Positions 2,368-13,634 of a stretch of 13,657 nucleotides of DNA are shown here, piece by piece. The notes beneath the pieces were generated by a model. It searched no databases. It had not been told where the DNA came from and saw nothing but the letters and a program-made list of their open reading frames with translations. The stretch spans positions 1 to 13,657 of the forward strand of contig JAFGGO010000116.1 of NCBI GenBank assembly GCA_016930515.1. The letters run 5' to 3'. The DNA comes from Promethearchaeota archaeon (lineage in GTDB: Archaea > Asgardarchaeota > Lokiarchaeia > Sigyniarchaeales > SOKP01). Position 1 is the first letter of the stretch. Each line of letters starts with the position of its first letter. The position numbers were made by a program, and so were the translations under genes.

Positions 2368-3546
2368 ATGAGAAACGAAGGAATGAAAAAGGAGGACATC
2401 TTAAATTTCCTTGATAAAAAATTAGACGGCGATTACGCTTACGATATGGGATATATATTGGGTTCAATGTGTACGGAACCCCTCGATTTTGGAAAAGAAG
2501 TATATACAAAATACTTGCATAAAAATTTAGGAGACCCAGGGCTTTTCAAGGCAACAGCAGACTTAGAAAACGAATTAATAGCCGATATCGGAGAATTATT
2601 AAACGGAAAGAACATCATCGGAACTTTTACGACAGGTGGTTCTGAAGCAAACATAGTTGCCATGCGCCTTGCGAGAAAATCTCGTCCCGAGATCAAGGAT
2701 CCTGAGATCGTGGTACCCGCTTCTGCACACATGTCCTTTGAAAAAGGAGCAGATCTAATGGGCGTAAAAGTTAGGAAAGCTAACTTGAAAGAAGATTTCG
2801 AATTAAACTTGGAACATTTCGAATCCCTAATTAATAAAAATACTTGCGGAATCGTAGGTATTGCCGGAACAACCTCGTTGGGATTGGTAGATCCTATTGT
2901 GAAGATGGCAAAAATCATAGATGATAAGGACATTTTTTTTCACGTTGACGCTGCGTTCGGCGGATTCGTTCTTCCCTTTTTAGAAAAGCTAGGTCACGAA
3001 ATATTACCTTGGGACTTCCGTGTAAAACAGGTCTGTTCTATCACTTCGGATCCGCATAAAATGGGCCTTGGAATCATTCCTTCTGGCGGATTTTTCGTCA
3101 GAGATGCTTCAATACTCGAGCATGCTGGATTTGAAATACCCTATCTCGCAGGCGGAGGATTCAAGCACTTGCATATTGTAGGAACTAGACCTGGAGGTAC
3201 GGTAATTGCGTTTTGGGCGATTATGAACTTCTTAGGAATAGAAGGATATAAAAAGATTGTAAAACAGTGCATGGATAACACATATTACTTAGCAAAACGT
3301 ATTTCAGAGATAAAAGGAGTTAAATTAGCAGCAGATCCCGTGATGAACGTTTTGGGAATTACAACGGAAAGCGGGAGAAGCGTTTGCGAGATGGATAATG
3401 AGTTCCGTAAGAAGCATTGGATGCTTGGAAAATTCATGGATTTGAATCTCATACGCGTGGTTATCATGCCTCATGTTACAAGAGAACATCTTTCTGACTT
3501 CTGTGTCGATCTAGAAAATATCGTAAAGAATTTAAAATTGACATAA
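2368..3546 (+). CDS. mfnA: MfnA-family group II PLP-dependent decarboxylase (L-tyrosine/L-aspartate decarboxylase)
   Basis: ILGSMCTEP, NLGDPGLF, TTGGSEAN, SAHMSFEK, HVDAAFGG, SITSDPHKMG (PLP lysine at 3058-3060), GTRPG and R.V.MPHV are all MfnA hallmarks. Length is 392 aa. Confidence 0.92.
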   Translation: MRNEGMKKEDILNFLDKKLDGDYAYDMGYILGSMCTEPLDFGKEVYTKYLHKNLGDPGLFKATADLENELIADIGELLNGKNIIGTFTTGGSEANIVAMRLARKSRPEIKDPEIVVPASAHMSFEKGADLMGVKVRKANLKEDFELNLEHFESLINKNTCGIVGIAGTTSLGLVDPIVKMAKIIDDKDIFFHVDAAFGGFVLPFLEKLGHEILPWDFRVKQVCSITSDPHKMGLGIIPSGGFFVRDASILEHAGFEIPYLAGGGFKHLHIVGTRPGGTVIAFWAIMNFLGIEGYKKIVKQCMDNTYYLAKRISEIKGVKLAADPVMNVLGITTESGRSVCEMDNEFRKKHWMLGKFMDLNLIRVVIMPHVTREHLSDFCVDLENIVKNLKLT

Positions 3547-3785
3547 AAAAAAGGTCCTTGGTTAAAAAACACTCTAATTCTATTTTAATGTCTAAATTCT
3601 CCTAATTATCTTTATTAGGTTAATTTTAAATAAGTTTTTACATTAAAAACTGTTACATTTCAAACCAATAATTCAATGTTATAATTTATTATCTTATAAT
3701 TATCAAACAAGATCTTTAAGGTAAATACTTAAACAAGAAATTAAATCATTAAATTTATCAAAAAGTTAGAAAAAATTAAATTATA

Positions 3786-6700
3786 GTGAAAAATCAGATG
3801 GGAGAAAATTTAGATTTAGACGACCTAAAAAGGCAGCTACGGGATCAATATAACAGGCGTAATCATGGTCTCACGATCGAATTAGCAAATAAAATACTCG
3901 AACAAGAGCCAGATTATTACGATGCCTTGGAATATAGGCTTGTCGCTACTTATGGATTAAAACAAGACGCTCCAGAGGCTGAAAAGGAACAATTAAGTCC
4001 AAGATATAAGGAGCTTGCCCTAGCAATGATAAAATACATGGAAGAAAAGGGCGATTTTACCAGAGATTCTCGCAAGCAATACACATATGTCGTAGCACGA
4101 AACAATTTAGGTTGGGAAGAAGTACTTCACGGTAAAACAGAAGAAGAGTGGGAAACGGGTTTGAAACACGTTGAAGTAGGATTGAAATACGACCAGCCGT
4201 CCTTTGCCTTGGATACAAAAATACGATTGCTTTTAAAATTAGAAAGAAATAGCGAGGCTTACGAAATAGCCCTTTCAATGCTAAGAAAAAACGAAAAGGA
4301 GAGAGACGTTCAGGACATAAAGTCAAACGCCGAATTCATCGAATGGGTTAAGAAGAAGCATCCCACTGATGTTTTAATCGTTGATAAGCACGAGGGCATG
4401 AACTTAAGAGATAAAGCTTTCCTGCAGGAGTTAGAATCACTTCTAAAAAAAACCTTAAAGGAGATTGAACCAGATAAAACGGGAAGGCAAGGATTTAGAA
4501 CCGTTAATGATAGAATAACTTCTCTTTTCTTGCGCGATTCCTACAATTTAGAGTCAATTCCAGAGAGTATAGGAAATTTGGATCACTTAAAAGAACTAGA
4601 AATAACATATAACGGTAATTTAAGGACATTACCTGAAAATCTAGGAAATTTGAAAAATCTCGAAGCACTAACGATAAAGAATTGCTACCTACTTAATAAT
4701 CTCCCAGAATCGCTTGGCAATTTAGAAAATCTGAGATGGTTTACGATAGATTACCTTAGAAGTGTGGAAACCTTACCAAACACGATTGGAAACCTGAAGA
4801 ACCTTGAAACCCTCTATATTAATCAAATTGGATCTAATTCTCTTCCAGAATCCATGGAAAGATTGAAAAAATTGTCCACCCTCAAGATTAAGAATTGTTC
4901 TTTCGAAAGCTTACCAGAAGGAATATGTGAATTATCTTCTTTAACCAATTTGGAAATAAAACACTGCAATTCCCTTCGCACGCTCCCCAAAAACATTGCG
5001 AAGCTTAAATCGTTAGAGATCCTAATTCTCGAAAATCTTTCTGGCATAGATTCGCTACCCGAGAGTTTTGGCGAATTAGAAAAATTGAGCAAATTAGAGA
5101 TGACGAAACTAAACGAGCTTCCCGTATTACCAGAATCTATTGGAGAATTACATTCGTTAGGGTTTTTAACCATTAATCGCTGTAGGGGCCTGAAAGATCT
5201 TCCTGAAAGCATCGGTAATCTCCCAAACCTTCGAGAATTTAGGCTAATAGAATGTAATGGTATTAGTACTATTCCAAACAATTTTTCAAAACTCCAAAAG
5301 CTTGAAACGATTGAAATTAATTCGCTTTCAGACGATTTTAAGGGATTCTCGGATAATTTTGGCAATTTAAAATCCCTTAATAAAGTTTCAATATCCAGTT
5401 GTAATGGTATCGAAAGCCTACCAGACACAATAGATAGTTTACATTACCTAAAAGATTTAGAGATTTCTTCTTGTCGCAAATTAAAAAACCTACCAAGAAG
5501 TATTGGTGGTATAACATCTCTTGTTAAGCTATCTCTATATGAATGTGATAATATTGAATTATTACCCGTTGAACTTACGGATCTTGCTTCCTTGGAAGAA
5601 ATACGCCTTGATAATTGTCAAAAATTATGTAAATTACCTGATTCTTTTACCAAGCTCCAAAATCTACGTAGAATATACATCAACAAGTGCCCAAGCTTAC
5701 AACTTATCCCTGACGAATTTGTGAATTTAAAATCAATAGAGGAAATAATTATTTTAAGATCGGGATTGAAAGCCCCGCCAGACAAGTTAAATTCTTTTAA
5801 GAACCTCAAAAAGCTAGAACTTTCGGGGAACATTTATTCTCCAGATAAAGACGAGAAGATGGAACTTATAAAAAAAAGGTGGAAAAAATACGAAAATCCC
5901 TGGAGGCGTTTTATCCTCTGGGGTTGGGACGAAAAAAATAATCCATCTTACATTATTCTTTATGGAAAGCACGATTTTATGGGGCTTGAAATTAATATTA
6001 ATGACAAAGAAATTGAGGATTTTGCTCAACTGAAAGTGCAATCTCTTCCGGAAGGAAAACGATTAGATATTAAACCAGGGGTCTATAATGTGCTTCAAGA
6101 CGATGTGAAGTACTCCTGCTACGCCGTTTTTCATGGTAAAAAAGGCCACTTACCTTCTTTCCAAGCTATAAAGGTCATTCAAAAAAGCCATTACGATTAT
6201 AAGACGCGATCATATTCTTACGATGACCCTGAAATGTATTTCAAAAAAGATATTTCATATCATTGGGGATGGAAGACGGATAAAAAAAAAATGTACAAGG
6301 AATTTAATAACCTCAAGGAATCGAAAAAAATCGTGCTCCCATATTTCGCACTCCTTTCTTACAAGCAACTTGTAAATAAGATTCATGAGCAGAAGTTCCA
6401 AATCAAGGGTTTCAGGATTGCAAGCTCTCTAAACGAGATACTGCAATTACCCAAAGATAAAGCAGAATACATCGAAATTATTGTAAAAACAATAAACCAC
6501 CAAAACATATACATAAGAAAAAAATACCTTTTCGAGCTGCTTTCAAAAGGACCTTCTAAAGATATATTGGCATCAATTATTAAAGTTGGTAGCTCAGAAC
6601 TCATTTCTGGGATATTTTTAGAGTTAGCTAAGCTCCAAAACCCCATTTTATTAAACGAGGCCCAGAACATTATCGACGGCTCGATTGAATGGACAGATGA

Positions 6701-8825
6701 AAGTTTCGCTCGTGGTGTTAAGAGATGCGCAACAATATATGTTAATTCCCTTGATTCAGAAAAAGTAAAACAGAGATCTAATTGGATTCTTAAGAATCTC
6801 CCAAACGCGGATCTTCATTTGAAAAAATTGAGAGGGGAAGAAATTCCTCCAGAAAAGCGATTAACGGGAGCTACTTATCGTAAATACGCACAGCAAGGTT
6901 ATTTGAATGACAATTATAAATATTACGATTACAATTCGAGAGATTATATATACGAAACTAATCGATACGATATAGGAGCATACTCCAACGGAATGATTTT
7001 AAATATAATCGAGTTTAAAAACACGATTCAAGAGGCAGAGATTTATCAGTTATCAAACATAATTGGCAAGATTGCTTATTATATTGATGCTCCTCGAATC
7101 GTTTATTATCTCAAGGGAAGCAAGAAAACCAAGGCTCTACGCTATTTCCAGAGTTACCTAAGGAGGATAATAAGTTCTATTGCAGATAAAGACGAATTAA
7201 AATTCATGGAAATAATGAAAGATTTTTTAACAAGCTTTAAACCCGAAGATTCTGTTAGCAAGTACGCTAATGATTTTTCCTCTAATACTCTCTTGAGATT
7301 TTTCATGTACCACGATTTTTCAGAAATTGGTCCAGATAGAAAAACAACGACTTGGGAGGAACGAGCGGAATATTATAGCGTGCCAAAAATGATGAGATTA
7401 ACGGGGCGTCGAGAATTTAAAAAGGAGATCTGGGACAGGCACTTAGATGTTGTTTTGGAAATCGTTTTAAACGCTCAGATAGACTCTATTAAGAAAGCTT
7501 GCTATTATATCTTAAAAGAAACATCAAACCTTCAAGAATTTGTCGATAAAATGTCCTTTAAACAAATCATCCAACTGGCTCTTGCGTCCTACGAACCGTT
7601 AGCAGGAATGTTCCTAAAAATTTTAAACGAAAAGATGGAAAAAATAGAAACCTTCGATCCCGAATTGATGCTCGCATTAATTGGATCTTCTGACGATCAA
7701 ATGCAACACCACGCCATGGATTTTTTCAACAGAACAAACGGATCTTTTGCACCAGAGACAGTCGCAGATTTTATCTTTTTAGACAACTTAGATCGTTGGT
7801 TTGAACTCTTTCAACAGAATTTAACGGCACTAAAGGGAGATAATTTTGCACAATTCCTTGAGAGCATTATCAATAAAATTCCAGAATTTATTGATAAAGA
7901 AATATCCATTTCACAGGAAACAAAAGATTTGTTATCAAATTCAACGCAGGAGATGGAATATTTATCGCCTTCGGTAAAAAAAGAGTTAATAACTGTTATA
8001 ATTGAAGTTATTTCAAAACAAAGAAGTATTCCTGATTGGACTATGAACTTACTTGAGGAGTGTATTTTTTCTATACCATATGAGGATTTAGATCTTGCGT
8101 TAAAAGGAATTGATATTGATTCTTTCAAGGGCGCATTTACTCAGAAAAGGATAATCTTTGCAATACTAAAGGCGATAAAAAACAATCAATTACCTTCGAA
8201 TCCTGATATCATTGATCTTTTAGATATTGGTACTGCTAAAATAATTAACACTTTTCTCACGATGGTGTCAAGGAACAAGGAAGAACTATCCAACCGTTTT
8301 TCGACTTTGCTTGTGATGTTCGAGTCGGAGGTTATATCGCTAAATCTTCACGCAGCCGATGTGTTTAATGAGTTGCCTCGTGAAAAACAAAAACGGTTGC
8401 ATTCAATGGTAATTGATTCTCCAGTTCATAGAGCCTATGAGTTTGGCCTTAAGAAGCTAGAAAGCGTTTATGGGGATTTAATTCCTGACGACATGATAAT
8501 TCAAATGCTAGAACACGGATCGAGCGAGGTAAAAGCCTATGTTTCCCGTAAAATTAACAATATAATCGAAAACTTAGGGAACGGCGATAAGAACCTTTTC
8601 ATGTATTATCTTCACACCTTATTATTACTACCAAACAAGCATGCAAAAAGTAAAAATAAGATTTACAATGTGTTACCCAAGTTTGCGTTGAAATATCAAG
8701 ATAAAATAAAGGAAATAGAACGAATGTTATTAGATATCGGCGGTTCTAATGTAATCGCCGATTCCGAGCGAGCGTTAGTGGCGCTTGCTAAAATAAAAAA
8801 GGAGGTACAAATAAATGCAAGTTAA
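3786..8825 (+). CDS. Large multidomain protein: N-terminal TPR-like helices, ~18 leucine-rich repeats and a ~990-aa C-terminal region ending in ARM/HEAT-like helical repeats; putative retron accessory/sensor
   Basis: aa ~1-190 are TPR-like (ANKILEQEPDYYDAL; NNLGW...ALDTKIRLLLKL). aa ~244-682 are LRRs. The region after M692 has a different, aromatic-rich character and then becomes Leu/Ile/Glu-rich amphipathic helices; the ARM/HEAT call is by eye only. Start is GTG 3786 or ATG 3798. Confidence 0.8.
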   Translation: MKNQMGENLDLDDLKRQLRDQYNRRNHGLTIELANKILEQEPDYYDALEYRLVATYGLKQDAPEAEKEQLSPRYKELALAMIKYMEEKGDFTRDSRKQYTYVVARNNLGWEEVLHGKTEEEWETGLKHVEVGLKYDQPSFALDTKIRLLLKLERNSEAYEIALSMLRKNEKERDVQDIKSNAEFIEWVKKKHPTDVLIVDKHEGMNLRDKAFLQELESLLKKTLKEIEPDKTGRQGFRTVNDRITSLFLRDSYNLESIPESIGNLDHLKELEITYNGNLRTLPENLGNLKNLEALTIKNCYLLNNLPESLGNLENLRWFTIDYLRSVETLPNTIGNLKNLETLYINQIGSNSLPESMERLKKLSTLKIKNCSFESLPEGICELSSLTNLEIKHCNSLRTLPKNIAKLKSLEILILENLSGIDSLPESFGELEKLSKLEMTKLNELPVLPESIGELHSLGFLTINRCRGLKDLPESIGNLPNLREFRLIECNGISTIPNNFSKLQKLETIEINSLSDDFKGFSDNFGNLKSLNKVSISSCNGIESLPDTIDSLHYLKDLEISSCRKLKNLPRSIGGITSLVKLSLYECDNIELLPVELTDLASLEEIRLDNCQKLCKLPDSFTKLQNLRRIYINKCPSLQLIPDEFVNLKSIEEIIILRSGLKAPPDKLNSFKNLKKLELSGNIYSPDKDEKMELIKKRWKKYENPWRRFILWGWDEKNNPSYIILYGKHDFMGLEININDKEIEDFAQLKVQSLPEGKRLDIKPGVYNVLQDDVKYSCYAVFHGKKGHLPSFQAIKVIQKSHYDYKTRSYSYDDPEMYFKKDISYHWGWKTDKKKMYKEFNNLKESKKIVLPYFALLSYKQLVNKIHEQKFQIKGFRIASSLNEILQLPKDKAEYIEIIVKTINHQNIYIRKKYLFELLSKGPSKDILASIIKVGSSELISGIFLELAKLQNPILLNEAQNIIDGSIEWTDESFARGVKRCATIYVNSLDSEKVKQRSNWILKNLPNADLHLKKLRGEEIPPEKRLTGATYRKYAQQGYLNDNYKYYDYNSRDYIYETNRYDIGAYSNGMILNIIEFKNTIQEAEIYQLSNIIGKIAYYIDAPRIVYYLKGSKKTKALRYFQSYLRRIISSIADKDELKFMEIMKDFLTSFKPEDSVSKYANDFSSNTLLRFFMYHDFSEIGPDRKTTTWEERAEYYSVPKMMRLTGRREFKKEIWDRHLDVVLEIVLNAQIDSIKKACYYILKETSNLQEFVDKMSFKQIIQLALASYEPLAGMFLKILNEKMEKIETFDPELMLALIGSSDDQMQHHAMDFFNRTNGSFAPETVADFIFLDNLDRWFELFQQNLTALKGDNFAQFLESIINKIPEFIDKEISISQETKDLLSNSTQEMEYLSPSVKKELITVIIEVISKQRSIPDWTMNLLEECIFSIPYEDLDLALKGIDIDSFKGAFTQKRIIFAILKAIKNNQLPSNPDIIDLLDIGTAKIINTFLTMVSRNKEELSNRFSTLLVMFESEVISLNLHAADVFNELPREKQKRLHSMVIDSPVHRAYEFGLKKLESVYGDLIPDDMIIQMLEHGSSEVKAYVSRKINNIIENLGNGDKNLFMYYLHTLLLLPNKHAKSKNKIYNVLPKFALKYQDKIKEIERMLLDIGGSNVIADSERALVALAKIKKEVQINAS
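4515..5831 (+). repeat. Protein-level leucine-rich repeat array, ~18-19 units of 23-25 aa
   Basis: Consensus LPxxIGxLxxLxxLxIxxCxxLxx. I counted 18 LP/IP-type anchors from IPES to PPDK. The DNA copies are diverged. Confidence 0.95.
8799..8806 (+). promoter_or_regulatory. Shine-Dalgarno-like site for the SWIM gene
   Basis: AAGGAGGT ends 8 nt before the ATG at 8815, inside the 3' end of the upstream gene. Confidence 0.6.
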
Positions 8826-10578
8826 TTACAAGTACGCAAGTCCTTCAATGTGTCTTCAACAAGAAGACCAGACCATATTAGGGTTAAGTCCTGACCTATC
8901 GAGGGAAGAAAAAGTATCGTTTAGGGGAAAACTAAAACACCCCTTAATATTCAGAGACGCCATGTTAATGTTGCGCGAGATCGTCATATCAGATATGAGC
9001 CAAAAAAAGAAAGAAAGATTAGAGTTTTTTGCGTGGCTCGAAGACGAGATCGAAAGACGCGTTCTAAAGCACGAAAAATACTTACCCGGAGTAAGAGAAA
9101 GCTTGAGAGACGAAATGGAAGGTTTGCTTAAAGAATTAGCAGAAAAGGACGATTTATTAAAAAACCTTGCCAATGCGAGAGCCAATTTAAATAAGGAAAT
9201 TTATGACACGGGCGCCTGGAAAGAATATAACAAGCTCGAAAGGAAGTTCTGGAATTTCATTCGAAACCGCGATAAAGACTTGTGGTTCGTACTAGATCCC
9301 GTGATTACGGTTCATCCAGACCAAGTATCTTTTGAAGCGTTTTCATTGGATGAGTCCACTTATGGATGCTTATCGGTTACGATGGACGAATTTATTTTAG
9401 TACAAGAACCCCAATTAGGAACGACGAATATCGATTTTTCTGCCAAGTTATCAAGAGAGATGGAACGGTTTAGAACTTACACGAATGTCGAGTTATCCGT
9501 AAATCCAGAAGGTTTTACTGTAGAAACGGGAGTAATGCCCGAATATGTGGAAAAAAAGATAGACTTGCCCGAAACATGGATAAAAGGATTTAACCAAGTA
9601 TCAGCTGCTGCAAGTCTGGGAGGAGTTGATCTCGAACTATCTCCCGTTGACATGTATGACATTTGTTCGTTCTTACGAAGGCACAAGGCACGCAAAAGCC
9701 CTCGATACATGAAATGGATATTAGAACCCGGAAAACACGTGAAGATCGTTCTCGAACCATGGGGTTCGAAATTGGAATTAAAGGCGGTTTACAGCGGAGA
9801 TAGAATACGGGAAGAAAAAGTATGGGGAAGACGGCGCTGGTTAGTAATGGAAAAGATAATACCTATCGCATCATCATTCAAGGTAAGACTTTTAGGATTT
9901 GGTATGCCTCAGTTTATCGTAGCAGACTTGGGCACGATGAAGATGACAATAGGTTTTACTTCCTGGTCTTCAAACGATTGGGTGAAGGGTACGGCATTTA
10001 ATATTTTAGGGGGATACATAGGCGAGGGGAACTACGAAGACATATACACTTTGTTAAAAAAACGTCGCCTTTTGTCGTTAGAAGAGATCAACAAAGAGTT
10101 ATCAGATTTCACGAAAAGTAAAAACAAATCGGGAGTAGGCATGGTACTTAAGCGTGGAGAGGCTTATTATGATCCAATCGTTGATGCCGTAAGATTTCGA
10201 CAATTGTGCAATTCTCCCATTCCCAAAGAATTGTACGAAACTACCACGATGGAACTAAGCGTGCAAGAACATTTGGAAGAAGGAATGAAAGGCTTTACGT
10301 TGAAACAAACTCAAGAAAAAGATTTTATTGCCACGCACGCCTTGAAAAAAGGAAAGCGAAAGGAAAATCTTACCAAAACTGAAATGACAATCAATCAAGA
10401 TGGGCAAATCACCAAAGTAAAATGTGATTGCAAGCAATTCAAAAAAGGGGCGAGAAACATTTCCGATCCGTGCGCTCACCTTCTTTCCTTGTATATTACC
10501 ACATCGAAATTTTTAAACTTGGAATTAAAGCCAGATAGAGAATATACCATAAATGACATTTTGGAGATGTTATTATGA
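8815..10578 (+). CDS. SWIM zinc-finger domain protein, putative retron type XIII accessory
   Basis: C-terminal CxC-x13-CxH motif (CDCKQFKKGARNISDPCAH, 10423-10479) and an N-terminal coiled coil. The core blocks LDPVITVHPD..SFEAFS.DES.YG, GTTNIDFS, KKIDLPETWIKGF.QV and WGRRR match my recollection of the SWIM family found beside Mx162-like RTs. Confidence 0.85.
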   Translation: MQVNYKYASPSMCLQQEDQTILGLSPDLSREEKVSFRGKLKHPLIFRDAMLMLREIVISDMSQKKKERLEFFAWLEDEIERRVLKHEKYLPGVRESLRDEMEGLLKELAEKDDLLKNLANARANLNKEIYDTGAWKEYNKLERKFWNFIRNRDKDLWFVLDPVITVHPDQVSFEAFSLDESTYGCLSVTMDEFILVQEPQLGTTNIDFSAKLSREMERFRTYTNVELSVNPEGFTVETGVMPEYVEKKIDLPETWIKGFNQVSAAASLGGVDLELSPVDMYDICSFLRRHKARKSPRYMKWILEPGKHVKIVLEPWGSKLELKAVYSGDRIREEKVWGRRRWLVMEKIIPIASSFKVRLLGFGMPQFIVADLGTMKMTIGFTSWSSNDWVKGTAFNILGGYIGEGNYEDIYTLLKKRRLLSLEEINKELSDFTKSKNKSGVGMVLKRGEAYYDPIVDAVRFRQLCNSPIPKELYETTTMELSVQEHLEEGMKGFTLKQTQEKDFIATHALKKGKRKENLTKTEMTINQDGQITKVKCDCKQFKKGARNISDPCAHLLSLYITTSKFLNLELKPDREYTINDILEMLL

Positions 10579-12035
10579 CCGAAAACACAAAACAAGACTA
10601 TAGAACGCTAATAAATCAAATGGGCAAGAAAGAATTTACTATCATGAAAATGCAGGAATACGGCTTTTGGCCAAAAGATCTGCCAACTCCTTACGAAAAG
10701 CAATTAAACGAAACGCCTGAACAGTATTCCAAGCGTAAAGCGCTCGTGGAGGATTATAAAAGCATTATAGAAAGAATTTCAAAATTATACAAGGAAAAGC
10801 AAGAAATTAACGATAAACTAAGAGATTTGCGAAAAAAATACGACGAAACTTGGGACATCGAAAGAATAAGAAAAGATATCGCCCAAACGATCATGAAAGA
10901 ATCCATTGCTCGTCGCACAGAAAAAAAAAAGCAACGGGAACTCGAAAAACACGCGAAATCAGAAGCGTGGAAAAAGAAAAAAGCAGAACAAATCATTTTT
11001 ATTGGAAAGGGTTATTCTTCCTTTTTATACGATAACGAGACGGACCAGCCAAAACTTGAGTTGCAAGGCTTACCTGTCATAAAATCTGATATAGACTTAG
11101 CTAATTTTTTGGAAATAGATTATAAAAAGCTTAGGTTTTTGTCCTATCATCGTGATGTCGTTACTGTAGACCATTATCACCGTTACACCATTCCAAAGAG
11201 AAAAGGGGGAATGAGAAACATTGCTGCTCCAAAACCCATTTTAAAATCAGTTCAAAGAAAGATATTGGAAGATATTTTAAACAAATTTTCTCTTTCCCAA
11301 CAGGCTCATGGATTTATAAAGGAAAGATCTATCTTGAGTGGAGCGCTAGCACACAACATTCAACCCGCCCTGGTCATTAACATGGACATTGAGAATTTTT
11401 TTCCAACCATTTCTTTTGAACGAGTTCGGGGCATGTTTAAATCAGCGGGATATTCAGGATTCATTTCTTCGTTATTAGCAATGTTATGTACTTACTGCGA
11501 GCGCGTGTCAATAGAAGTAAAAAATAAAACAAGATTCATAGCAACTACAAAACGAATTTTACCTCAAGGTTCTCCTGCAAGCCCGATGATAACTAATATT
11601 ATTTGCAGGAGGTTGGACCAAAGGTTGAACGGACTCGCAAGTAAATTTGGATTTACTTACACGAGATATGCAGACGATATGAGCTTCAGCATAAACGACG
11701 AGACTAATGTGAAAGTGGGAAGATTCTACGGATTAGTTTCAAAAATCGTGAAAGACGAGGGATTTGAAATTAATAAAGAGAAAACACGGTTTTTAAGGAA
11801 AAATAACAGGCAATCCATCACGGGAGTAGTTGTCAACAACGAGAAACTTGGAGTTAATCGAATGTGGATGAGACGGTTTAGGGCTGCGATTCACAACGCA
11901 AGCAAGTTAAGATCAAATGGAGATTTGCCAATTGAAGTAAAAAGGGAGCTTTCGGGCATGGCTTCGTGGGTTAGAAGCGTTAATCCCGAACGTTACAAGA
12001 AATTAATAGAGACCGCAATGGAGGTAATTAAATAA
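10575..12035 (+). CDS. ret: Retron-type reverse transcriptase (Mx162/Sa163-like) with a ~150-aa charged N-terminal extension
   Basis: IPKRKGG.R.IAAP, AHGF...RSI, region X GALAH (canonical NAxxH; 11340-11354), DIENFFPTI, LPQGSPASP, YTRYADD (YADD at 11667-11678), region Y ITGVVVN (canonical VTG; 11817-11825) and RAAIHN. No maturase or endonuclease domain. The start overlaps the upstream stop (ATGA), with GGAG at 10563-10566. Confidence 0.95.
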   Translation: MTENTKQDYRTLINQMGKKEFTIMKMQEYGFWPKDLPTPYEKQLNETPEQYSKRKALVEDYKSIIERISKLYKEKQEINDKLRDLRKKYDETWDIERIRKDIAQTIMKESIARRTEKKKQRELEKHAKSEAWKKKKAEQIIFIGKGYSSFLYDNETDQPKLELQGLPVIKSDIDLANFLEIDYKKLRFLSYHRDVVTVDHYHRYTIPKRKGGMRNIAAPKPILKSVQRKILEDILNKFSLSQQAHGFIKERSILSGALAHNIQPALVINMDIENFFPTISFERVRGMFKSAGYSGFISSLLAMLCTYCERVSIEVKNKTRFIATTKRILPQGSPASPMITNIICRRLDQRLNGLASKFGFTYTRYADDMSFSINDETNVKVGRFYGLVSKIVKDEGFEINKEKTRFLRKNNRQSITGVVVNNEKLGVNRMWMRRFRAAIHNASKLRSNGDLPIEVKRELSGMASWVRSVNPERYKKLIETAMEVIK

Positions 12036-12064
12036 CTCTCATTTCAGGAAAAGAGAATAATTAT

Positions 12065-12251
12065 TTTCCTTGGCCTTCATGCCTCGGCGTTGCGTTGCGG
12101 TCGAAACTTGCCAAGCACACGACACCTGGACGAGCGCAACTCGCATCGCTGGTGTCCTAAATTTAAAACTGTAGGATCCATTTTAATAAATTTAGGACAA
12201 ACTGCTTTGCTAAAGTGTTGCATCTAGTTATGAGAATTGATAGCAAGGAAA
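12065..12251 (+). ncRNA. Putative retron ncRNA (msr-msd), copy 1
   Basis: Terminal IR TTTCCTTG (12065-12072) / CAAGGAAA (12244-12251), extendable to 12055/12257 with a bulge. Candidate branch G at 12073. Perfect 13-bp stem 12153-12165 / 12187-12199 with a 21-nt loop. Confidence 0.75.
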
Positions 12252-12278
12252 TTATTCCTTCCTTTTCCAATATTTATT

Positions 12279-12324
12279 AAAAAAAAAAAAATTTATTATA
12301 AATCAATTCCTCATAATTATAATA
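12279..12324 (+). promoter_or_regulatory. Putative archaeal promoter (A-rich BRE + TATA-like TTTATTA) for ncRNA copy 2
   Basis: An A13 run (12279-12291) is followed by TTTATTATA (12292-12300), starting 33 nt before the TTGGATTTCTTG arm. The same motif and spacing occur before copy 3. Confidence 0.45.
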
Positions 12325-12519
12325 TTGGATTTCTTGGCCTTCACGCCTCGGCGTTGCGCCGCGGTCGAAACTTGCCAAGCACACGACACCTGGACGAGCG
12401 CAACTCGCATCGCTACGCTGATCGTGCGCATTGAAAATGGAGCCTACGGTTATGCGACGATCAGCGCGCTCTGCTGAAGTGTCACGTCCAGTTGTGAGAA
12501 TCGTTAGCAAGAAATCCAA
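12325..12519 (+). ncRNA. Putative retron ncRNA (msr-msd), copy 2
   Basis: Perfect 12-bp terminal IR TTGGATTTCTTG (12325-12336) / CAAGAAATCCAA (12508-12519). Candidate branch G at 12337. 15-bp stem with one bulge, 12416-12431 / 12452-12466, and a 20-nt loop. Confidence 0.8.
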
Positions 12520-12540
12520 AATTCTCTATATCATTATAGA

Positions 12541-12583
12541 CACAAGAAGATTTATTAACTATCAAATCCTCATAATTATAATA
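12541..12583 (+). promoter_or_regulatory. Putative archaeal promoter for ncRNA copy 3
   Basis: Purine-rich AAGAAGA followed by TTTATTA (12551-12557), 33 nt before the TTGGATTTCTTG arm. It shares TCCTCATAATTATAATA with the copy 2 leader. Confidence 0.45.
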
Positions 12584-12584
12584 T

Positions 12585-12775
12585 TGGATTTCTTGGCCTT
12601 CACGCCTCGGCGTTGCGCCGCGGTCGAAACTTGCCAAGCACACGACACCTGGGCGTGCGCAACTCGCGTCGCTACATATAGTGTCTGATTGAAAATGGAG
12701 CCTTCGGTGATCAGACACTATATGCGCTCTGCTGAAGTGTCACTCCCAACTGTGAGAAAGTTAGCAAGAAATCCA
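12585..12775 (+). ncRNA. Putative retron ncRNA (msr-msd), copy 3
   Basis: Perfect 11-bp terminal IR TGGATTTCTTG (12585-12595) / CAAGAAATCCA (12765-12775). Candidate branch G at 12596. Perfect 15-bp stem CATATAGTGTCTGAT (12675-12689) / ATCAGACACTATATG (12710-12724) with a 20-nt loop. Confidence 0.8.
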
Positions 12776-12779
12776 TTAA

Positions 12780-12795
12780 TTTTTTCTTTTTATTT
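12780..12795 (+). terminator. Putative archaeal oligo-T terminator of the ncRNA array
   Basis: TTTTTTCTTTTTATTT lies 4 nt after the last IR arm and just before the stop codon of the convergent gene. Confidence 0.5.
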
Positions 12796-12803
12796 AATAA
12801 AAA

Positions 12804-13634
12804 TTAATTCAGTTTTATGAGATGTGCAAAATTGTTGTAAAAGACTTTCTGAAGCGTGCTTTTTTCTAAATTCAAACAGATAATCTTATTAATTTCAATA
12901 TCGGGAGGATTTGCGGCGGGAGCGTCAGAACCGAAAATCACTCTGTCCTCACCCATTGCTTTTATGAGAGATAATATCCCAAACGGGATGGACACGCTCG
13001 TTTCGAAATAGACATTTGGAATGTTCGAATCGTGAGCAAAAAAACGGACTAAACTCACGCAATATTCCATCGAAAAAGCCGCATGACCAATAATTAATTT
13101 TAGCTCCTTATATTTTTTTGCAAGGGCGTGATAATCTTTAACGCGAGCTTGTTTTTGAAAGAAAAAGCCAGAACCAGAGTGAATGTATAATGGAACATCG
13201 TGTTCTACGCAAAATTCTGCTAATTGATAAAAATCGTGTGGTGCCTTGAGAAAATCGATATAAGGGTGCGTTTTAACACCTTTAAATCCATAATCGACGA
13301 TATATTTTTCTAAAAAATCCCAATCATCTTCAGAAGCGATTTTTGGATTAAACCAGAAGAATCCATAAATGCGTTTTGGATACTCCTTAATGAGTGCCCT
13401 GACCTGCTCGTGGTCGTATTGTTGTTTTGGAACGAATTGATTCAATAATTCTTTAATATCGAGGATTTTTCCGCTTTGTTCGATGGCATTCATATTTGCG
13501 GCTTGATTCAAGGTAGTTACGGCAGCTTTCTCAATTCCGTGCTTATCCATTAATTGAATAAGGGACTCTTCTCTTGGTTTGAATCGCCCTGCGTGGTGCA
13601 TGTGAGCGTCAAAGATTTTAAATTCATTAGCCAT
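12804..13634 (-). CDS. Amidohydrolase family protein (metal-dependent TIM barrel, Amidohydro_2-like)
   Basis: N-terminal DAHMH (HxH), GFKGVKTHP, VPLYIHSG, IIGHA, NVYFETS, G.DRVIFGSD.P and a C-terminal KVFYNN. Confidence 0.88.
   Translation of the reverse strand: MANEFKIFDAHMHHAGRFKPREESLIQLMDKHGIEKAAVTTLNQAANMNAIEQSGKILDIKELLNQFVPKQQYDHEQVRALIKEYPKRIYGFFWFNPKIASEDDWDFLEKYIVDYGFKGVKTHPYIDFLKAPHDFYQLAEFCVEHDVPLYIHSGSGFFFQKQARVKDYHALAKKYKELKLIIGHAAFSMEYCVSLVRFFAHDSNIPNVYFETSVSIPFGILSLIKAMGEDRVIFGSDAPAANPPDIEINKIICLNLEKSTLQKVFYNNFAHLIKLN

Follow-up and report, generated by a model that had tools for sequence, protein, structure and literature searches.

The first retron found, Mx162, belongs to type XIII. 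To our knowledge, neither the function of the two large partner proteins of this type nor its mechanism has been established, and we know of no experiment that demonstrates antiviral defence by any type XIII retron. In the Firmicutes branch of this type, a reverse transcriptase (RT) of clade 10 is found together with a SWIM protein of cluster 114 and a HEAT/ARM protein of clusters 216/259/1688/3262 (Mestre et al. 2020, PMC7736814). The canonical WGR-HEAT partner (cluster 216_1; the Mx162/Mx65/Sa163/Ne144 class) is likewise a large alpha-solenoid adjoining SWIM and RT, and it carries an extra small domain at the N-terminus, which is WGR-like. Descriptions of type XIII in the searchable literature mention neither leucine-rich repeats (LRRs) nor an archaeal retron, and the searchable papers contain no retron of any kind with LRRs and none from Asgard archaea.

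The DNA analysed here is a stretch of 13,657 nucleotides from a Promethearchaeota archaeon (contig JAFGGO010000116.1), referred to below as the window. Its retron locus has the same RT, the same SWIM protein with a zinc-finger motif and the same HEAT/ARM-like partner as the Firmicutes type XIII retrons, in the same gene order with overlapping genes and with ncRNA units downstream of the RT. The Clostridial proteins are 45-48% (partner), 71% (SWIM) and 65% (RT) identical to those of the Asgard locus. What sets the Asgard locus apart is the archaeal host, some 690 extra residues at the N-terminus of the partner and the presence of three tandem ncRNA units. The features are listed in Table 1.

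Table 1. Features of the retron locus, in positions of the window.
Feature	Position	Strand	Basis
Limits of inserted cassette (9.2 kb)	3547..12803	.	Empty-site comparison
Fused retron partner gene (single ORF with helical domain, LRR and HEAT/ARM module)	3798..8825	+	Database model P0005, closest orthologue
All-helical TPR-like domain, aa 11-199 of P0001	3816..4385	+	AlphaFold2, homologue searches
LRR N-cap, aa 207-243, cap helix and beta hairpin	4404..4514	+	AlphaFold2, comparison with P0129
19 leucine-rich repeats of ~24 aa, aa 244-686	4515..5843	+	Pfam, segmentation, AlphaFold2, structure search
Junction and linker IYSPDKDEK	5832..5858	+	Orthologue alignment
Met692 codon ATG	5859..5861	+	Not conserved among orthologues
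Beta-rich N-terminal domains of partner module, module residues 1-190; WGR-like reading unconfirmed	5859..6428	+	AlphaFold2
HEAT/ARM-like alpha-solenoid of partner module	6429..8822	+	PADLOC WGR_XIII (partial, 3.4e-23), AlphaFold2
SWIM protein of retron type XIII	8815..10578	+	PADLOC SWIM_XIII (4.4e-180)
Retron reverse transcriptase RT_XIII, YADD	10575..12035	+	PADLOC (4.8e-163)
Presumed msr-msd ncRNA array, three tandem ~260-nt units	12014..12790	+	Repeat and relative alignments

The RT is matched by the PADLOC RT_XIII profile over aa 3-484 and by Pfam RVT_1 (E 2.2e-25), and its YADD motif is intact. The SWIM protein is matched by SWIM_XIII over aa 1-563 and has a CxCx13CxH motif at its C-terminus, with a sub-threshold match to Pfam SWIM (E 0.19); its gene starts before the partner gene has ended (8815 versus 8825). 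The partner module was modelled by AlphaFold2 with a pLDDT of 90 as an alpha-solenoid from module residue 192 on, for which the best Foldseek matches are the HEAT solenoids SF3B1, CAND1, MMS19 and PP2A-A. Compared with the canonical WGR-HEAT partner, its profile match is only partial (positions 308-582 of 973 in WGR_XIII). For module residues 15-59 the prediction is three strands and a helix, hhalign of the module start against two WGR domains gave E 0.34, and Pfam WGR had no match in the partner protein. An atlas search of aa 692-885 returned no usable match, and PDB sequence searches with the conserved module and the SWIM protein returned nothing at E 1. Six related loci, Asgard as well as Clostridial, also have the ncRNA unit downstream of the RT, conserved at 68-84% nucleotide identity (70-76% over longer alignments); Rfam and tRNA scans of the window gave no matches. 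By its predicted gene content the locus is assigned to type XIII as a complete retron of the Firmicutes/Clostridia branch, the ncRNA role of the units being presumed.

The partner gene is a single reading frame, open from GTG 3786 to 8825 on the forward strand (1679 aa if counted from the GTG) and without stop or frameshift along its whole length. The ATG at 3798, M5 when counted from the GTG, is used as the start by both the database gene model P0005 and the closest orthologue and gives a protein of 1675 aa. From N- to C-terminus it consists of an all-helical domain, an LRR N-cap, 19 LRRs, a linker and a HEAT/ARM partner module of 988 aa. The sequence character shifts at about aa 690, where the similarity to stand-alone homologues of ~1000 aa begins. 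AlphaFold2 modelled aa 1-700 with a mean pLDDT of 93.9 and a pTM of 0.81. By eye, the N-terminus has no long hydrophobic stretch, and the protein is predicted to be cytoplasmic, a location read from sequence alone.

An assembly or gene-calling error that joined an LRR gene to a retron gene is conceivable for a MAG contig from a sediment metagenome in a genome with many LRR genes, and we regard it as practically excluded. An independent Logan contig of 11.9 kb (~12x depth, probably from the same sample as the MAG) spans positions 3600-9000 with no differences and is identical across the junction. Five orthologous fused genes with a conserved junction motif are found on other assemblies from other samples. 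Together with the uninterrupted reading frame, these observations confirm the initial annotation in that aa ~1-690 stand ahead of the retron partner in one gene and that the junction is genuine. Among the sequencing runs listed as containing the sequence there is no RNA run, and two metatranscriptome runs of the same study had no match to it; these results are silent on expression.

The distribution of the fusion was assessed on the best 120 homologues of the C-terminal module. Stand-alone proteins of ~1000 aa, mostly from Clostridia, make up 109 of these, and the C-terminal 988 aa align to such proteins at 99-100% coverage. LRR fusions account for six of the 120, all from Asgard MAGs or metagenomes; five others carry a TerD domain and one another extension. 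The partner protein adjoins genes for SWIM (or SWIM-like) proteins and RT in 7/7 fetched neighbourhoods, with the same order of the three genes. It had been anticipated that stand-alone proteins starting near M692 would lie beside SWIM and RT genes and that other retron loci would not routinely carry the fusion; the coverage, the seven loci and the six fusions among the best 120 homologues agree with both expectations. We therefore describe the LRR-capped partner, as read from these comparisons, as a rare lineage-specific fusion in Asgard archaea.

The N-terminus of the partner appears as a variable slot, which may be bare, WGR-like (in the canonical form), filled by TerD, by an extension of 183 aa (in P0070) or by LRRs. 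The TerD-fused partners from Pseudobacteroides (P0061, P0063-P0065) belong to the same family, use the same N-terminal slot and lie beside SWIM and RT. They have a bacterial host and a TerD domain of ~190 aa, whereas the Asgard partner has the LRR instead; the LRR is likewise the Asgard addition where the canonical partner has its small domain.

Pfam LRR families span about aa 243-612 (LRR_14 with E 5e-47, plus nine other LRR families). Segmentation of aa 244 to ~686 gave 19 units, most of them 24 aa long within a range of 21-28 aa, and the AlphaFold2 model has 19 LRR strands matching these units. The cap helix lies at aa 207-220, and the style of the N-cap is the same as in free TPR+LRR proteins such as P0129. 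The consensus is LxxLxIxxCxxLxxLPxxIGxL, with Cys at the Asn position in many units. The earlier count of ~18 Cys-containing 24-aa units was thus close, and the likeness to plant NLRs that had been noted holds as well: the LRRs of Roq1 and RPP1 are likewise built of 24-residue units in which Cys takes the Asn position, and Roq1, a plant NLR, provides with its LRR the top sequence match in the PDB (E 1.4e-46). The best matches in a structure search with the aa 1-700 model were LIC11098 (Z 36.7), the plant receptor GSO1, the RPP1 LRR (Z 28.3), the Roco LRR (Z 27.8) and SHOC2; this search was dominated by LRR matches and barely probed the fold of the helical domain. Roco/SHOC2-type LRR proteins have the same repeat class, and Pfam architectures combining Roc/Ras with LRR (Asgard Roc/COR proteins) are also among the LRR matches.

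Plant NLRs are intracellular, as the fused partner is predicted to be. Unlike NLR/STAND receptors, the partner is without a central NTPase, its LRR is joined to a retron scaffold and nothing else in it is NLR-like: a Pfam scan of the whole 1679-aa protein found no NB-ARC, NACHT or other STAND ATPase/P-loop family, and no TIR, CC domain or Roc-COR. The likeness to the plant NLR LRR is one of a shared repeat class and does not imply common descent with NLRs.

The host genome has 35 LRR matches at ~25 loci with 30-47% identity, and the rare helical domain of the fused partner also occurs together with LRRs in one host paralogue, P0274. Given this paralogue and the abundance of such LRRs in the host, a host origin of the LRR module is plausible. 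The best matches outside the host are only 31-40% identical, with plant NLRs interleaved with Asgard or metagenomic proteins, and the LRR donor can therefore not be named. Hence the proposed graft of a host LRR stands as far as the host type of the repeats is concerned and does not extend to a named donor; similarly, the search with the LRR returned the Asgard LRR matches that were expected, and not an exclusively Asgard source. At the DNA level, Tandem Repeats Finder detected nothing repetitive in 3700-6000; the LRR units are therefore old, have diverged and do not stem from a recent expansion. Across the fused orthologues the extension ahead of the conserved module ranges from 417 to 687 residues, and the number of repeats varies. 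Substitutions on the concave LRR face are not enriched relative to the closest orthologue (0.38 versus 0.40) and are mildly enriched relative to the next one (0.74 versus 0.62). Since they are not clearly concentrated on this face, there is no clear sign of arms-race selection.

The helical domain was modelled confidently as all-helical, with 10-11 helices of 7-25 residues, and is rare (44 matches among 1.8 billion representative proteins). Its core motif is NNxAW...DTKxRLLLKLxRxxEAY...DFQDIK. The 'TPR' label given to this region by the initial annotation is not supported, as a Pfam scan of aa 1-240 gave no family even at E 10. TPR-like is at best the appropriate term, based on the predicted helix-hairpin array, a sub-threshold TPR_14 match in the homologue P0246 and language-model neighbours, namely TPR clusters at 0.92 with <170 shared features, which are a lead only. 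The domain also adjoins LRRs in the host paralogue P0274 and in P0263, P0266 and P0267, the last two being WGR-LRR-helical proteins. These free proteins have the LRR class in common with the fused partner and also its rare helical domain, of which the core (aa 97-191) is shared. In them the helical domain follows the LRR, whereas in the fused partner it precedes it. None of the free LRR-helical and TPR+LRR proteins is joined to a retron module, unlike the fused partner.

The cassette is flanked by genes for a PLP decarboxylase (2368-3546) and an amidohydrolase (12804-13634), which are 44-78 bp apart in two genomes of the same genus where the site is empty. G155 and L001 also have this site occupied, giving three genus members in all. 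Within the phylum, the partner module was found in 6 of 400 genomes, five of them in the family of the window. In an unrooted tree, in which several rows of the Asgard clade are metagenomic proteins lacking a taxon name, 12 Asgard rows are separated from the bacterial rows by a branch with support 100*. Within the Asgard clade the LRR forms are nearest to the bacterial rows, and the LRR-less forms make up one clade with support 87. About half of the Asgard clade is without LRR, and the LRR is therefore dispensable for the core function.

These comparisons indicate that an Asgard (Promethearchaeota-type) lineage acquired the retron from Bacillota as a 9.2-kb cassette, where the direction rests on the wider bacterial distribution and the nested Asgard position in FastTree. 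The Asgard clade set against the Clostridial forms, the 6/400 genomes and the insertion with its empty sites thus bear out the idea of an imported system. The N-terminus of the partner then gained a host-type LRR N-cap and LRRs, and in one sub-lineage also the rare helical domain. A shared junction motif, and the position of the LRR branches nearest to the bacterial forms, fit a single fusion event shortly after the transfer, the module having later been lost or replaced in some descendants.

That motif, N(I/V/F)(Y/F)SP, is common to all six LRR-fused orthologues. The linker YSPDKDEK, the ATG codon of Met692 and the abrupt change of character had been described correctly. Stand-alone homologues start 10-40 residues before a conserved WKK..P.R..LWGWD block, i.e. 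near residue 692, and Met692 lies 8 residues before the WKK block, about where the bacterial proteins begin. On this ground the gene might be translated both into the full-length fusion with the LRR and into a short stand-alone partner started at Met692, which we consider very unlikely. The methionine is missing in all five other fused orthologues, the codon being TTA in the one that is 74% identical and AGC and CTC in two others, with no ATG at the junctions of P0006 and P0009; moreover, no SD-like motif is found upstream of Met692. For these reasons Met692 is neither a relic of an ancestral start nor a conserved internal start, and neither of these two earlier suggestions is retained.

The LRR-helical module probably adds a protein-recognition input to the retron. 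In the model that we propose, it would serve as an input or adaptor domain with a protein ligand bound at its concave face, and the linker, which is short and conserved, would relay this binding to the HEAT/ARM scaffold. Scaffold and RT-msDNA complex would jointly hold or release the SWIM/DEDE protein, a presumed nuclease-like effector. Internal initiation at Met692 has no part in this. Most plausibly the ligand would be a virus or mobile-element protein, and the retron would therefore be triggered by a protein, besides or instead of a disturbance of the msDNA. For the model as a whole, i.e. transfer of a type XIII retron, fusion of a host-type LRR and use of the LRR as a ligand input gating the SWIM effector, we estimate a probability of about 0.6. 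A more specific version, where the helical-LRR part is a pattern-recognition receptor for Asgard-virus proteins that directly gates the SWIM/DEDE effector on the HEAT scaffold with RT-msDNA, is put forward as a tentative suggestion.

Instead of sensing viruses, the same module could act as an adaptor for a partner in the host, or it could serve assembly or localisation, for instance by tethering the retron to Asgard small-GTPase/Roco-type signalling proteins or by oligomerisation. Such LRRs are abundant housekeeping and signalling modules in the host (the 35 matches) and in Asgard Roc/COR proteins, and the concave face has no clear diversifying pattern. The helical domain is the most conserved part relative to the closest orthologue (85% identity, versus 75% for the HEAT module and 68% for the LRR), as would fit a constant partner. 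Arf/Ras/Roc genes lie near two fused loci, a proximity which may be due to chance because GTPase genes are common in Asgard genomes. Against an adaptor role, the fusion occurs only on an imported, patchy cassette whose family is listed with the defence systems, and its repeat number varies between orthologues with the length of the extension. We regard the adaptor as a possible, minority reading.

Domestication of the retron for a cellular, non-defence role, with the LRR coupling it to host regulation, would agree with the insertion site kept in three genus members and with the partly vertical history of type XIII, its moderate correlation with host 16S and the non-defence roles suggested as possible for it (Mestre et al. 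2020, PMC7736814). This reading seems improbable in view of the presence/absence polymorphism inside one genus with clean empty sites, the module being present in merely 6/400 genomes, and the rapid turnover of N-terminal domains. Polymorphic presence, patchiness and domain turnover are typical of accessory defence cassettes and not of domesticated core genes.

If the module is a receptor for Asgard-virus proteins, the locus would combine a host LRR and a bacterial retron into an NLR-like LRR-sensor/effector logic without a STAND ATPase, and would do so in the closest archaeal relatives of eukaryotes. Innate immunity in eukaryotes relies on LRRs as its main sensors, whereas the defence systems of prokaryotes rarely contain them; an immune-type module coupled to an LRR in Asgard archaea would thus be informative about the origins of LRR-based sensing. 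The comparison also identifies the N-terminal end of the HEAT/ARM partner as an input slot with exchangeable content. Deleting or swapping the added domains and searching for a ligand is feasible, which gives a handle on type XIII function. The locus is, in addition, a clean and datable case of a bacterial defence-type cassette that entered an Asgard genome and was remodelled with a host-type LRR.

Two further candidates related to the helical domain were considered and rejected. P0246, taken as a possible carrier of the retron module, has no such module, and the gene lying upstream of P0009, a fused form of shorter length, was taken as a possible split-off helical domain but encodes a metallophosphoesterase-like protein.

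The source MAG (4.0 Mb, 94% complete, 5.3% contamination) is of Asgard type, and the window comprises one of its contigs (13.7 kb) in full. Besides the profiles SWIM_XIII and RT_XIII, each recognising one gene, the PADLOC profile WGR_XIII gave only a partial match, in the large protein (amino acids 1113-1395, E 3.4e-23). Based on these three matches the locus is, on sequence criteria, a type XIII retron as defined by Mestre et al. 2020 (PMC7736814), whose components are an RT of clade 10, a partner of HEAT/ARM-like type and a SWIM protein. Its flanks carry corrinoid adenosyltransferase, archaeal-type phosphopantothenate synthetase and amidohydrolase genes. The type XIII retron itself is known, and the LRR-fused, Asgard-borne form is new. 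A search of the original account of type XIII (Mestre et al. 2020, PMC7736814) and of the 2026 SPIRE retron survey turned up neither LRRs nor archaea, nor were LRRs found in a 2026 Asgard defensome paper, in which reverse transcriptases do not feature.

Coordinates of the retron cassette and the gene preceding it
Feature	Position	Strand	Remark
PLP-dependent decarboxylase gene	2368-3546	+	
Fused partner ORF, 1679 codons	3786-8825	+	most probable start ATG 3798
SWIM_XIII gene, 587 aa	8815-10578	+	PADLOC E 4.4e-180
RT_XIII gene, 486 aa	10575-12035	+	PADLOC E 4.8e-163
Presumed msr-msd array, three tandem direct-repeat units of ~260 nt each	12014-12790		directly after RT gene
Limits of inserted cassette	3547-12803		between PLP decarboxylase and amidohydrolase genes

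The start codon of the fused partner was chosen because the database model and the nearest orthologue agree on it. The LRRs claimed in the initial annotation were borne out. Pfam returned ten LRR families at approximately amino acids 243-612 and nothing else in the whole protein, and cutting the sequence into units resulted in 19 repeats of 21-28 residues from amino acid 244 to about 686. The consensus is LxxLxIxxCxxLxxLPxxIGxL, and many units have Cys where Asn is usual. An AlphaFold2 model of amino acids 1-700 (mean pLDDT 93.9, pTM 0.81) comprises an all-helical domain (11-199), a cap helix (207-220), a hairpin and 19 LRR strands. The top structural hits are all LRR proteins, namely LIC11098 (Z 36.7), plant receptor kinases, the LRR of RPP1 (a plant NLR), the Roco LRR and SHOC2. 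Among solved structures, the closest sequence match is to the LRR of Roq1, also a plant NLR (E 1.4e-46). The label 'TPR' is the weak point of the initial description, as no Pfam family was found at amino acids 1-240 with a cut-off up to E 10. A predicted helix array, together with a TPR_14 match below threshold in one homologue and TPR clusters as language-model neighbours (a lead only), suggests that the helical domain may be TPR-like. An assignment of the fused protein as an NLR was rejected, as the Pfam scan contained no STAND NTPase.

An assembly artefact at the junction can be excluded for practical purposes. A Logan contig of 11.9 kb spans positions 3600-9000 with zero differences at approximately 12-fold depth; this is an independent assembly, probably of the same source sample and thus not an independent sample. 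Greater weight falls on five orthologues from other assemblies, in each of which the fused gene runs without interruption and shares the motif N(I/V/F)(Y/F)SP at the junction, with a conserved W.K...PWR..LWG block after it. The linker and Met692 (ATG 5859) are present as initially described, and Met692 lies near the start of the bacterial proteins. This methionine is peculiar to the genome of the window: the codon is TTA in the closest orthologue and AGC or CTC in others, in two fused orthologues the whole vicinity of the junction lacks a Met, and no Shine-Dalgarno-like motif was found upstream of the ATG. These observations do not support reading Met692 as a relic start or as the start of a conserved short isoform.

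The conserved module, i.e. the 988 residues from Met692 onwards, matches 147 proteins, and the best 120 of these were examined. Fewer than 100 residues precede the point aligned with residue 692 in 109 of the 120 (median 33), and LRR fusion, found in six including the protein of the window, is thus not routine among them. An N-terminal TerD domain occurs in five of these 120 (Pseudobacteroides) and an unrelated extension of 183 residues in one. The TerD fusions at this N-terminal slot include P0061, P0064, P0065 and the Pseudobacteroides cellulosolvens locus (L009, 7001-10351); the 183-residue extension, without Pfam match, belongs to P0070 (L008, 7001-10513) of G196, a genome from the family of the window. 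Stand-alone forms derive mostly from Clostridium and other Clostridia (45-48% identity, 99-100% coverage). The adjacency to SWIM and RT genes anticipated for stand-alone relatives of about 1000 amino acids was seen in all seven neighbourhoods examined (three LRR-fused, two other Asgard, one Clostridium, one TerD form), each in the order partner, SWIM-like (~590 codons) and RT (~495 codons). The model of the module (pLDDT 90) is beta-rich at residues 1-190 and continues as a long alpha-solenoid best matching the generic HEAT proteins SF3B1, CAND1, MMS19 and PP2A-A, which accords with the published HEAT/ARM annotation.

The presumed ncRNA unit of ~260 nt recurs after the RT in six related loci, Clostridium among them, at 68-84% nucleotide identity (70-76% across longer alignments). 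Three copies are found in the window and one or two in Clostridium, Pseudobacteroides and Asgard relatives. Judged from this shared unit and gene order, the whole cassette including the RNA gene is therefore common to Clostridia and these archaea. In the BAJALOKI locus (L004), the unit (20671-20855) lies ~3.2 kb after the RT, and a 779-aa gene on the opposite strand without Pfam family (17530-19869, minus) is located between the two.

A tree was built from the 120 modules, together with a smaller maximum-likelihood tree of 32 modules. In both, a fully supported branch splits 12 Asgard-side modules from all bacterial modules, and in the 120-module tree Bacillota sequences surround the Asgard clade. 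Seven of the 12 were tied to Asgard MAGs by NCBI names, by identity to genomes of the window's family, or by gene neighbourhood in the case of the LRR-fused P0006, whose contig has an archaeal neighbourhood as in the window; the other five are unnamed metagenomic proteins. Of 400 genomes sampled from the phylum, only 6 contain the module, five of these belonging to the window's family. As an insertion, the cassette measures 9.2 kb. Two congeneric genomes, G154 (L029) and G156 (L030), have the site empty, with 44-78 bp between the decarboxylase and the amidohydrolase gene; a third (G155) carries the retron at this site, as does L001, the contig encoding the 74%-identical orthologue. Import of the system, already assumed in the initial annotation, is well supported by these observations, its direction being read from the distribution and the nesting in an unrooted tree. 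A metallophosphoesterase-like gene (65% identity; L002 9277-9822, L007 1-384) directly precedes two retrons, those of LRR-fused P0009 and LRR-less P0096, the modules of which are just 38% identical; it marks either a shared insertion site or an extra cassette gene of a sub-clade.

When the tree is read starting from the bacterial modules, lineages with LRRs are the first to diverge, and the LRR-less Asgard forms and the form with the other extension make up one clade (support 87). This branching order and the shared junction motif fit one fusion early in the Asgard clade with later loss or replacement; independent gains of the LRR may also have occurred. Four of the six LRR-fused proteins contain the helical domain. 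This domain is rare: when 1.8 billion representative proteins were searched exhaustively, only 44 matched at E up to 0.001. It follows the LRR in P0263, in P0266 and P0267 (WGR-LRR-helical), and in P0274, a 773-aa paralogue from the window's own genome. The P0274 gene (G000:C60, L026 712-3033, minus) also encodes a region of unknown family preceding the LRRs. In the host genome, the LRR of the retron has 35 matches at ~25 loci (30-47% identity), and the LRR N-cap style recurs in free TPR+LRR proteins. The best matches outside the genome are plant NLRs mixed with Asgard or metagenomic proteins (31-40% identity), so no single LRR donor can be named. Of the suggestion that a host LRR was grafted on, a host-type origin is plausible, but the module did not arise by simple cut-and-paste of a known gene, because the domain order differs. 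In L007, an LRR-less Asgard locus, the RT and ncRNA are closely followed, on the same strand, by an 860-aa CDC48_N+LRR gene (7355-9937, plus). It could be the separate-gene counterpart of the fusion, or adjacent by chance, LRR genes being common in these genomes.

No known mechanism for any type XIII retron was found in the literature searched. The N-terminus of the partner is variable, being bare or carrying TerD, another extension or LRR, and in LRR solenoids the concave face is where proteins bind. In the most parsimonious reading, the LRR/helical module would add a protein-recognition input to the HEAT scaffold, which with RT-msDNA would control the SWIM/DEDE protein, a putative nuclease according to Mestre et al. 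(PMC7736814). We assign this model, input or adaptor, an overall probability of roughly 0.6, with about even odds within it for a viral and a host ligand. A strong arms race is disfavoured by the substitutions on the concave face, which show no enrichment in the comparison with the closest orthologue (0.38 vs 0.40) and a mild one in that with the next (0.74 vs 0.62), by the helical domain being the most conserved part, and by about half of the Asgard clade being without LRR. The canonical type XIII partner contains a WGR-like domain, and this is the domain found at the N-terminus of P0266 and P0267.
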